From assembly GCF_036507355.1 (NCBI RefSeq), contig NZ_AP027883.1: DNA of 4,958 nucleotides; one strand, given 5' to 3'. The DNA is from Escherichia coli. GTDB lineage: Bacteria; Pseudomonadota; Gammaproteobacteria; Enterobacterales; Enterobacteriaceae. Positions within the stretch are counted from its first letter, which is position 1. The number at the start of each line of letters is the position of its first letter. Positions 1 to 4,796 of this stretch are shown here, in pieces. A program made the translations under genes and the position numbers. The notes below the pieces were generated by a model that saw only the letters and a program-made list of their open reading frames with translations, made no database searches and was not told the origin of the DNA.

Positions 1-124
1 AACCAGCCTCGACACCATCAAGAGCTGGGAAACCGGACGCCGTAACCCGACCGGACTGGCGGCGAAGGTACTGGCAACCATCCAGGCGAACCCGAAATTC
101 TTCCAGGAACTGGCGGCGCACTAA
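1..124 (+). CDS. higA: 3' part of a HigA2-like XRE-family helix-turn-helix antitoxin gene (5' part is at the window end; nt 1 is the third base of a codon split across the window boundary)
   Basis: Reading from nt 2 gives TSLDTIKSWETGRRNPTGLAAKVLATIQANPKFFQELAAH followed by TAA at 122-124. The SLDTIKSWETGRRNP stretch is the second helix and turn of a classic XRE-type HTH. It continues in frame from the partial ORF at 4798-4958. Confidence 0.75.
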   Translation, partial: TSLDTIKSWETGRRNPTGLAAKVLATIQANPKFFQELAAH

Positions 125-272
125 GCCGTTGTGACAGAAGGATTCGACAGGCGAGGCCGTTCGCGTGTAATTTAACGGCAACAGAAAAAACAAAGCCCCG
201 GAAATCATGTCATATCTTGGCGGATCGCATGATAACCAGGGCCAGGTCGAAACCTTGAAAGGATATTAGCAC

Positions 273-323
273 ATGAAACGTGCCAGACAACAGCCCGCCA
301 TAAGCGCAGGGCGAATTGAATAA
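273..323 (+). promoter_or_regulatory. Candidate 16-codon leader mini-ORF (MKRARQQPAISAGRIE) whose stop overlaps the rep start; possible translational-coupling element
   Basis: ATG at 273-275 preceded by AAGGA (259-263) at 9 nt spacing; in-frame TAA at 321-323 lies 3 nt after the TTG at 316 that opens the rep frame (aTTGAATAA). Purely sequence-based, no homology support. Confidence 0.25.
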
Positions 324-1284
324 CGCAGTACTCGAACTTTTCAACGACCGCTTACCGCACAAGCCGTACTTTTCGGACGATCTGCACTTTGGTGTACGCA
401 TTGCCGGTAAGGAACGCGCCATTCTGGCGAAATACATCCAGTTCAATCAGCCTCACGCCATGTTCTGGCTGGGATTCGACGTCGATCGCGCCGGTGCCGC
501 TATTGACTGGAGCGACCGCAATGCCCCCGCGCCGACACTGACGATCACCAACCCCGAAAACGGGCACGCGCACCTGCTTTACGCGCTGAAAACCCCGATA
601 CGTACCGCGCCAGACGGAAAAATGAAGCCATTACGCTACGCAGCTGCCGTAGAGAACGCGCTACGTAAAAAATTAGAGGCTGATGCGGGGTATTCGGGAC
701 TAATCTGCAAAAATCCGAACCACGGACACTGGAAAATTGCCGTATGGCAGCCGGAACTCTACACGCTGGACTGGTTGGCTGACTTTCTTGACCTGAACGC
801 AGCGAACGAAAAAGACATCGTTGATGACTACGGCTTAGGCCGTAACTGCACCTTGTTCGACAAGACCCGTAAGTGGGCATACCGCGCTATCCGTCAGGGC
901 TGGCCGGAGTATGAGCAGTGGCTGCAAGCCTGCTATGAGCGGGCTAGTGCTTACAACCTGCAATTTGCTGTGCCTCTGGATGAAAATGAGGTGAACGGGA
1001 TTGCTAAAAGCATTGCTAATTGGACAATATGCAATATGTCAGAATTCGAATTTAGAGAATACGTAAAGAAAACTCACACTTCAAAAATACAAGCTTTGAG
1101 AGGTAAGATTGGAGGTCGCAAAAGCAAAGGTGGAGGGCGTAGGAAAAATTCTAGTTGCCCCACATCAGAACGAACTACAAAGCCATGGGTTTTACTTGGT
1201 ATTAGTCGTTCGACTTATTACAGGAAAAAATCAAATAAATTTAAGGCTGATTTAAATGTCCAACCAGAAGAGTTTGAATATTGA
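316..1284 (+). CDS. rep: ColE2-type plasmid replication initiator Rep (plasmid-specific primase), probable TTG start
   Basis: 322-aa ORF. The N-terminal two thirds (LPHKPY, QPHAMFWLGFDVDR, NPENGHAHLLYAL, YSGLICKNPNHGHW, GLGRNCTLFDKTRKWAYR) and the C-terminal KPWVLLGISRSTYYRK match my recollection of the ColE2 Rep family. There is no in-frame ATG between the upstream stop (301-303) and residue 48, so TTG 316 is the only plausible start; the Shine-Dalgarno is weak (AGGG at 308-311). Confidence 0.85.
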   Translation: MNNAVLELFNDRLPHKPYFSDDLHFGVRIAGKERAILAKYIQFNQPHAMFWLGFDVDRAGAAIDWSDRNAPAPTLTITNPENGHAHLLYALKTPIRTAPDGKMKPLRYAAAVENALRKKLEADAGYSGLICKNPNHGHWKIAVWQPELYTLDWLADFLDLNAANEKDIVDDYGLGRNCTLFDKTRKWAYRAIRQGWPEYEQWLQACYERASAYNLQFAVPLDENEVNGIAKSIANWTICNMSEFEFREYVKKTHTSKIQALRGKIGGRKSKGGGRRKNSSCPTSERTTKPWVLLGISRSTYYRKKSNKFKADLNVQPEEFEY

Positions 1285-4463: not shown

Positions 4464-4796
4464 GTGAGTCACGCGATTGAGTTTATCGAGACCCCGATGT
4501 TTACCCGTCAGATAAAACAGATCGCCACGGATGAAGAACTCAGGGAGCTGCAAAAGACGCTGATTGAGTCGCCGGACAAAGGCGATCTCATTCAGAAAAC
4601 CGGCGGGCTGCGCAAAATCAGGATGGCGACGGGCAACCAGGGAAAAAGCGGCAGCGTGAGGGTGATTTACTTTCTGGCCACCGCCGAGGTGATCTATCTG
4701 GTGATGGCCTACCCGAAAAGCACCAAAGACAGCCTGACGGACGCGGAAAAAGCCGCGCTGAAGACGCTGACCCAACAACTGAAAGACGAGGTGTGA
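4464..4796 (+). CDS. higB: HigB2-like (RelE/ParE superfamily) type II toxin, GTG start
   Basis: 110-aa ORF. TGGLRKIRMATGNQGKSGSVRVIYF and the downstream AEVIYLVMAYPKSTKDSLTD match the HigB-2 toxin family (GTGGLRKIR...GKRGGSRIIYYF...YLL..Y.K pattern) as recalled from Vibrio HigB-2. Toxin-first gene order is typical of hig modules. Stop TGA 4794-4796, 1 nt before the antitoxin ATG. Confidence 0.8.
   Translation: MSHAIEFIETPMFTRQIKQIATDEELRELQKTLIESPDKGDLIQKTGGLRKIRMATGNQGKSGSVRVIYFLATAEVIYLVMAYPKSTKDSLTDAEKAALKTLTQQLKDEV

Follow-up and report, generated by a model that had tools for sequence, protein, structure and literature searches.

The plasmid analysed here comes from Escherichia coli (NCBI RefSeq assembly GCF_036507355.1, contig NZ_AP027883.1). 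The whole stretch of 4,958 nucleotides (nt), which we call the window, is a complete circular plasmid of 4958 bp, its last and first bases being contiguous in relatives. Its replication gene, rep, encodes a ColE2-type primase-initiator that starts at a TTG codon with hardly any ribosome-binding site. Positions 178-323, just upstream of and overlapping this start, very probably form a complete control cassette of the IncL/M, IncB and IncI-alpha type, composed of an antisense RNA, a leader peptide and a pseudoknot, which here drives a ColE2-type Rep. The sequence elements of the cassette, their conservation and their homology to IncL/M at the nucleotide level are observed directly and are laid out below. 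The elements at the center of the argument are the following.

Positions 195-242, plus strand: stem-loop I of the rep mRNA leader, an inverted repeat, seen also in the minimum-free-energy fold, and the proposed antisense target.
Positions 217-223, plus strand: apical loop 5'-UUGGCGG-3', the proposed antisense kissing site and 5' pseudoknot partner.
Positions 259-263, plus strand: Shine-Dalgarno (SD) sequence AAGGA of the leader, 9 nt 5' of its ATG and abutting the 5' end of the predicted antisense duplex.
Positions 273-323, plus strand: leader open reading frame (ORF) with ATG 273-275, 16 codons and TAA 321-323, encoding the peptide MKRARQQPAISAGRIE.
Positions 295-300, plus strand: CCGCCA box, the proposed 3' pseudoknot partner, a perfect 6-nt complement of loop positions 218-223 (UGGCGG) with pairs from U218-A300 to G223-C295.
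Positions 308-311, plus strand: weak SD-like AGGG, 4 nt 5' of the TTG and the only SD-like bases before the rep start.
Positions 316-1284, plus strand: rep, a listed ORF encoding the ColE2-type primase-initiator, with start codon TTG 316.

For comparison, species-representative genomes were scanned with Rep residues 1-235, which yielded 65 loci, and further leaders were taken from PLSDB (loci used for comparison carry L numbers). The comparative set comprises 27 distinct cassettes, 25 of them before ColE2-type Reps and two before another initiator.

The relationship to the IncL/M type emerges from a permissive scan against Rfam, in which one credible match was obtained: PK-repBA (RF01089), the repBA leader with pseudoknot, aligns to window positions 194-305 on the plus strand over the full length of the model with 39.8 bits (E=2.3e-6; curated gathering threshold 45 bits). 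The relatives with a complete leader all match the same model with E below 1e-3, and 11 exceed 45 bits, namely L004 (46.7), L016 (51.0), L017 and L020 (47.4 each), L019 (57.1), pMUT2 (50.4), p11184 (63.4), pEI2 (47.9), L076 (50.5), L071 (60.4) and L075 (69.7). The leader of L004 differs from that of the window by just a few bases. Bona fide IncL/M leaders, those of pOXA-48 and an IncM plasmid, reach 117-118 bits, and direct alignment with pOXA-48 (IncL) brings out the common strings AAAGGAT.ATAGCA.ATG and ACAGCCCG(G)CCA(A)TA.G.GCAGGG. The Rep of the window does not belong to IncFII_RepA (PF02387), the initiator family of IncL/M, IncB and IncI; the likeness is one of the control cassette and not of the whole replicon.

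What is conserved in the leader? An SD-led ORF of 16-17 codons is present in all 27 cassettes, with its stop at either +5 or +1 of the rep start; the +5 arrangement is of the TTGAATAA or GTGTCTGA type, the +1 arrangement of the GTGA or TTGA type. In the window TAA 321-323 lies at +5 relative to TTG 316, and leader and rep overlap by 8 nt in different frames. The string AAGGAT at the leader SD is conserved across clades including IncL/M, and the geometry of the cassette stays constant throughout the set, even where the leader frame differs. Codon 2 of rep is variable (AAT, CAT, CGT, AGT, ACT, GAT), and because its third base is T throughout, the TAA of the leader is preserved. The pMUT2 clade has one inserted nucleotide in the box region, offset by a downstream stretch that is 1 nt shorter (14 versus 15 nt from box to start), so that the leader stop remains at +5. 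The peptide itself, on the other hand, shows no conservation across clades, and the CGCCATAAG box falls into different reading frames (PAISAG, PRHKAG, NRHKCG). For these reasons a functional leader peptide was rejected as a candidate, and the constraint appears to act on the RNA, the reading frame and the act of translation. Judged from these comparisons, the arrangement of leader and rep is beyond chance.

These observations also bear on a control of the classical ColE2-P9 style, in which an antisense RNA would directly prevent translation of Rep, the mini-ORF would be incidental and TTG 316 would be used alone. Such a control would suit a Rep of the ColE2 family with a ColE2-like origin sequence, and an antisense RNA against the 5' untranslated leader of ColE2 has been reported, according to passages of PMC5304414 that cite it. 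We regard it as very improbable, since two classical relatives start Rep at an ATG behind an SD sequence without any leader ORF and score 23.7 bits or nothing against PK-repBA, whereas the lineage of the window has retained an ORF of this length, with its stop in place, despite substitutions and an indel that restores the frame, and TTG 316 is almost without an SD of its own. A preliminary description of this DNA had placed the leader under ColE2-type RNAI control; given the match to the IncL/M-type repBA leader and the two classical relatives that lack the leader ORF, this assignment is not upheld.

The start codon of rep itself deserves scrutiny. The in-frame upstream stop is TAA 301-303, and TTG 316-318 is the sole ATG, GTG or TTG between it and the first in-frame ATG of rep, which lies at 460-462 and corresponds to codon 49. 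Rep carries the Pfam domains Replicase (PF03090, 2.8e-46) and PriCT_1 (PF08708), and as Replicase begins at residue 28, a start at codon 49 would truncate it. The C-terminal part, residues 176-305, matches PDB entry 3vw4 'Rep' (5.7e-29), which we take to be the DNA-binding domain of ColE2-P9 Rep. The homologous codon is annotated as the rep start by the NCBI pipeline in two close relatives, p58 of enterotoxigenic E. coli (ETEC) and a Klebsiella plasmid, and P. shigelloides p11184 has an ATG exactly at the position of the TTG. This is the one ATG among the 27 cassettes, the others starting with TTG (18) or GTG (8). Classical ColE-type Reps align from their own residue 2 with residue 3 of the window's Rep. 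The odd TTG start is thus confirmed as real. The string GCAGG at the weak rep SD is kept in most relatives and in IncL/M.

That Rep begins elsewhere, at a downstream start or as a leader-Rep fusion produced by frameshifting, might be suspected from the rarity of TTG as a start codon and from the 8-nt overlap with a leader in another frame. It is hardly credible: the next ATG falls within the Replicase domain, relatives carry ATG (p11184) or GTG at this very codon, residue 2 of the classical Reps aligns as described, and no slippery sequence is evident at 313-323. We rejected both variants on these grounds.

Most of what the preliminary description had said about this region stands: the start at TTG 316, the weak ribosome-binding site (just AGGG 308-311 precedes the TTG), and a 16-codon ORF with AAGGA at 9 nt and a TAA at 321-323 just past the TTG, placed for translational coupling, an idea to which the conserved leader with its stop at +5 or +1 in every cassette lends weight. 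Its statement that no ATG occurs before residue 48 is right in that no earlier in-frame ATG exists, and off by one in that the ATG is codon 49. If the cassette is what we propose, the TTG start and the weak ribosome-binding site would be design features and not anomalies, and a lineage with TTG or GTG rep starts and almost no ribosome-binding site would find its reason in a control by leader, antisense RNA and pseudoknot.

The RNA elements point in the same direction. Stem-loop I adopts the same fold in each of the 27 relatives folded individually and corresponds to the paired region of the PK-repBA model. In its lower and middle stems 94.6% of aligned cells are paired and four pairs are changed on both sides; the covariation score was reached by none of 500 shuffles. 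These formal counts cover the nine lower and middle pairs, as the upper stem is not in register in the MAFFT alignment. Most sequences differ in the upper stem, which is supported solely by the individual folds, each with the motif at its apex. The loop sequence TTGGCG is invariant in the 25 ColE2-type and the two IncFII_RepA-type cassettes and takes the form TTGGCCGG in IncL/M; the role of this loop motif has been described for ColIb-P9 (PMC4705826).

The preliminary description lacked one element, the complementarity between loop 218-223 and box 295-300, which forms a pseudoknot in the IncL/M-type family. The distance from the end of the CGCCA box to the rep start is 15 nt in 25 of the 27 cassettes; in the remaining two, members of the pMUT2 clade, it is 14 nt. 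Loop and box co-vary between families: UGGCGG/CCGCCA in the window corresponds to UUGGCCGG/CCGGCCAA (GGCCGG/CCGGCC) in IncL/M, to UGGCGA/UCGCCA in L071 and to UUGGCGG/CCGCCAA in L024.

Would the box be needed at all? In a control of the R1 or IncI2 style, the antisense RNA would block leader translation only, rep would be coupled to the leader in a simple manner, and no activating pseudoknot would form; the box would then be conserved for another reason, for example as part of hairpin III (described below). The leader geometry and the antisense gene fit this equally well, and an IncI2 plasmid has a leader and an antisense RNA without a pseudoknot (PMC8053102). There is also a weak CopA-like match in Rfam on the minus strand at 270-187 (24.3 bits, E=0.45), and four relatives have just five loop/box pairs. 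We nevertheless consider this alternative improbable. The CopA match is far below its gathering score of 60, whereas PK-repBA fits over its full model length; every cassette has a box that complements its loop, at a constant distance of 14-15 nt from the start; box and loop change together, by a matched 1-nt indel relative to IncL/M and by a G-C to A-U exchange in L071; and the box is kept though it is read in different frames.

On the opposite strand, and around the elements listed above, the remaining parts of the cassette can be placed.

Positions 186-256, minus strand: predicted antisense RNA gene of ~70 nt, comprising a small 5' hairpin, the complement of stem-loop I and the terminator UUUGUUUUUU.
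Positions 263-290, minus strand: predicted antisense promoter, with -35 TTGTCT (290 to 285), a 16-nt spacer and an extended -10 TGc-TAATAT (271 to 263).
Positions 144-171, plus strand: candidate rep mRNA promoter, with -35 TCGACA 144-149, a 16-nt spacer and -10 TGTAAT 166-171; predicted start near 178.
Positions 244-255, plus strand: small hairpin II (AGGU-CGAA-ACCU), a predicted fold between stem-loop I and the leader SD.
Positions 293-312, plus strand: weak hairpin III (GCCC...GGGC), which encloses the box and the weak rep SD and is seen in both folds.

The minus strand folds with -27.8 kcal/mol (z = -3.0) into a stem followed by a U-run from 194 to 185, which is the shape of a terminator. 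Together, promoter and U-run would set the ends of the antisense RNA at about 256 and 186. The promoter has 8 of 12 consensus positions, one short of the cut-off of 9 of 12 used in the consensus scan. We accept it because the -35, the 16-nt spacer and the -10 recur at the same position in every clade scanned and because it is nearer to consensus in diverged clades (TATAAT or TATACT, 9-10 of 12), usually with a TGn extension. The antisense promoter of IncL/M, read by eye, is TTGCAA-16-TATAAT. The preliminary description had expected a minus-strand antisense RNA within about 200-330; a gene with promoter and terminator fold is indeed predicted, and its extent from ~256 to 186 falls partly outside that range.

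The call of the rep promoter is made with low confidence. It is based on sequence and on the string TTCGACAGG...GTGTAA, conserved in relatives including the classical ColE type, and the promoter does not appear in the consensus scan. The sequence GCCGTT occurs at 125-130 and 156-161 and its complement AACGGC at 174-179, the last two bracketing the predicted rep -10, and the stretch GCCGTTCGCGTGTAA.TTTAACGGC in the region of 125-179 is kept in close relatives. This region may act as an operator or as an mRNA 5'-end element. An 11-nt pair with 91% complementarity, AAGGATTCGAC and GTCGAAACCTT, lies at 138-148 and 246-256 and joins the promoter region with the bases immediately 3' of stem-loop I; it would be relevant solely to transcripts reading through from the toxin-antitoxin genes upstream, and chance may account for it.

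Hairpin II has a counterpart at the same position in IncL/M, and the stem homologous to hairpin III is stronger there (CAGCCC/GGGCUG). Hairpin III is presumed to be the inhibitory structure that leader-translating ribosomes would open.

Several results weigh against the cassette as proposed. The PK-repBA score of the window remains below the curated threshold. A generic promoter scan of positions 1-700 found no promoter, and a terminator scan of the same region returned just short minus-strand hairpins. The fold of 270-345, which contains hairpin III, is no better than that of shuffled sequences (z = 0.18). Within the enterobacterial clade the pseudoknot partners are nearly invariant, so their covariation comes solely from comparisons between clades, and L006, L010, L018 and pMUT2 have just five complementary loop/box bases.

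How could such a cassette work? From homology with ColIb-P9, IncB and IncL/M we infer the transcripts, reinitiation and the effect on regulation. The rep mRNA would start near 178 and fold into stem-loop I (195-242), displaying 5'-UUGGCGG-3' in the loop. Ribosomes would load at the strong leader site (AAGGA 259-263, ATG 273) and translate 16 codons, thereby traversing the weak hairpin at 293-312 with the CCGCCA box and the poor rep SD inside it, and would terminate at UAA 321-323, 5 nt beyond the point where UUG 316 begins. The freed CCGCCA at 295-300 could then pair with loop 218-223, and the pseudoknot would keep the rep site open, so that the terminating ribosome would be able to reinitiate at the weak UUG. 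In ColIb-P9 a weak non-AUG start is required both for dependence on the pseudoknot and for repression by Inc RNA (PMC4705826); the control mechanism of this plasmid is also treated in PMC8053102. The antisense RNA of ~70 nt (256 to 186), presumably made constitutively, would first kiss the same loop and block the pseudoknot; the duplex would then extend to the edge of the leader SD and block leader translation as well. Acting on both the loop and the leader SD, it would make Rep synthesis fall as copy number rises.

The cassette is not confined to ColE2-type initiators. It also stands before an initiator of the IncFII_RepA family (Pfam PF02387) in pKPC-e4b7, a 51.5-kb KPC plasmid (L071, 1508-1644), and before an annotated RepA in a 30-kb Pantoea plasmid (L075, 409-545). 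In each of the two, the leader comprises 17 codons and stops with TGA at +5, and the start is GTG. L071 has exactly the loop and upper stem seen in the ColE2-type L018 and in pMUT2 from E. coli Nissle, and just a few positions of the lower stem differ. As a tentative proposal, which we hold to be possible rather than probable, the cassette could be a portable unit of control, passed among unrelated initiator families within Enterobacterales, with cross-incompatibility as a consequence and with the classical ColE2/ColE3 leader as a derivative. If, as in the I-complex, incompatibility is determined by the antisense RNA, small cryptic plasmids of the ColE2-like kind and certain large resistance plasmids would regulate one another's copy number. 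Such plasmids would be incompatible despite unrelated Reps, while replicon typing based on rep would call them unrelated. Exchangeable modules of replication control have been described in Pseudomonas (PMC5304414), and the proposal would extend this idea to Enterobacterales.

The mechanism as such is well known, and our finding is confirmatory rather than surprising. Among the matches listed, a literature search found no description of a ColE2-type Rep combined with an IncL/M-type leader, nor a paper on ColE2 or 'ColE2-like' plasmids of Enterobacterales with a leader peptide or pseudoknot. The analysis would account for the TTG or GTG rep starts in a lineage of small enterobacterial ColE2-like plasmids, among them pMUT2 of the probiotic E. 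coli Nissle 1917, Edwardsiella pEI2 and ETEC p58. It lends support to the start codon that database annotation uses, and it places a leader ORF and a predicted antisense RNA gene, both previously unannotated. Antisense RNA and leader together are likely to set copy number and incompatibility, which would be useful for engineering or curing these plasmids.

Some of the more distant loci show other arrangements. In Acinetobacter and related loci (L029-L032, L038, L048), ColE2-type Reps with 40-47% identity are preceded, at ~100-125 nt, by a stem-loop with TTGGCG or CGCCAA in its loop; rep starts with ATG there and no obvious leader ORF is seen. The loop motif appears to be older than the arrangement of leader and pseudoknot. 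A second ColE2-type rep, in truncated form, is present on the IncX1 plasmid pSE13-SA02717 (L070, 1500-1700); there an ATG joined to Rep at residue 21 (MDDLHFGVRI) directly follows stem-loop I and SD, and leader, box and residues 1-20 are absent. A metagenome scan with the pattern TTGGCGGAN{50,80}CGCCATAAG returned 120 loci, all of them chance matches and none with stem-loop context, the pattern being too short for the size of the collection. Two unrelated Rfam matches turned up along the way: an AgrB antisense RNA at 993-1080 of L070, the IncX1 plasmid (50 bits, threshold 40), and a sroH-like match at 2846-3000 of L024, a Psychrobacter contig (58.6 bits, below the threshold of 80).

Upstream of the cassette lie a RelE/ParE-type toxin gene (4464-4796) and a NadS-type antitoxin gene, which runs from 4798 across the junction to its stop at 122-124 and ends 20 nt 5' of the predicted rep -35. 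Downstream, a low-GC cassette at 1026-2321 (28-37% GC versus 50-64% elsewhere) contains the divergent C-terminus of Rep and an Acyl_transf_3 gene (1256-2275). This stretch stands between the rep core and the ColE2-like origin sequence GAGACCAAAAACAAGCCTATATCAGATAACAGCCC at 2287-2321, which lies ~1 kb past the rep stop, after the low-GC acyltransferase gene. A low-GC insert between repA and oriV has been noted for pHW66 and pUB6060 (PMC2831885). Plasmids that have 75% of the backbone at 95-97% identity carry annotated genes absent from the window, among them genes for an AIPR family protein, a J-domain protein, an anti-phage dCTP deaminase and an AAA ATPase, and where checked (ETEC p58, the Klebsiella plasmid) these lie just beyond rep. 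This region looks like a cargo slot.

How does the cassette compare with known systems? The classical ColE2/ColE3 type is represented here by two proxies, a colicin plasmid (L068, pSCU-111-3) and a Col156 plasmid (L069), and not by ColE2-P9 and ColE3 themselves. These share with the window the Rep family (62% identity over the N-terminal 235 residues), the origin motif ...CCTATATCAGATAACAGC... and a homologous backbone of promoter, stem-loop and SD 5' of rep, and an antisense RNA against the leader is reported for ColE2 replicons in passages of PMC5304414. In both proxies, however, the homologous SD and ATG start Rep directly (SD-N10-ATG, MSAALQYF...), without leader ORF or CCGCCA box, whereas in the window 43 nt of leader body and box lie between that homologous ATG and the TTG start. 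The top of the stem-loop is inverted (L068, 600-700; L069, 1400-1500), with CCGCCAAG or CCGGCAAG in the sense strand, so that UUGGCGG would lie in the antisense RNA and not in the mRNA. By sequence, the classical leader looks like a derivative of the cassette in which, with leader body and box deleted, the leader ATG came to be joined to codon 2 of Rep.

The REx-C modules of Pseudomonas are likewise self-contained, with stem-loops, a putative antisense RNA and an optional leader peptide (PMC5304414), and they have been exchanged between non-homologous rep genes, including that of the ColE2-related RepA-PFP (Bardaji et al. 2017, PMC5304414). Their sequences are unrelated to the window, the authors proposed no pseudoknot box, and they did not find these sequences outside Pseudomonas or in ColE2 replicons (PMC5304414). 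The CopA-CopT-tap system of R1 (IncFII) resembles the window in that an antisense RNA acts against a leader and repA is coupled to a short leader ORF; it differs in having no activating pseudoknot, and the CopA score of the window is 24.3 bits against a threshold of 60.

The repY-repZ/Inc RNA region of ColIb-P9 (IncI-alpha) and the repB-repA/RNAI region of IncB pMU720 follow the same logic as the window. Their leaders are longer, about 29 codons, their initiators belong to another family, and sequence similarity is weaker, PK-repZ being matched with 29 bits in the relative L025 only. The shared logic comprises an rUUGGCG loop, a CGCC box just 5' of a weak SD and a non-AUG start, with leader termination triggering pseudoknot formation and reinitiation and with an antisense RNA of ~70 nt competing at the loop (PMC4705826).

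Finally, the repC-repB-repA/RNAI region of IncL/M (pMU604; pOXA-48) forms the core of RF01089 PK-repBA. The pseudoknot of the window has 6 bp (UGGCGG/CCGCCA) compared with 8 bp in IncL/M (UUGGCCGG/CCGGCCAA), its leader stop is at +5 (TTGAATAA) instead of +1 (GTGA), rep starts with TTG instead of GTG, repC is missing, and the initiator is of the Replicase/PriCT_1 type instead of the unrelated IncFII_RepA. Yet the parts of the cassette follow one another in the same order: stem-loop I, whose loop is of the UUGGC type, comes first, and after it a small hairpin, AAAGGAT-N9-ATG, a leader of 16 codons, a box within ACAGCCCG(G)CCA that complements the loop, GCAGGG as a weak SD and a non-ATG rep start that overlaps the leader stop, with an antisense promoter opposite the 5' end of the leader.

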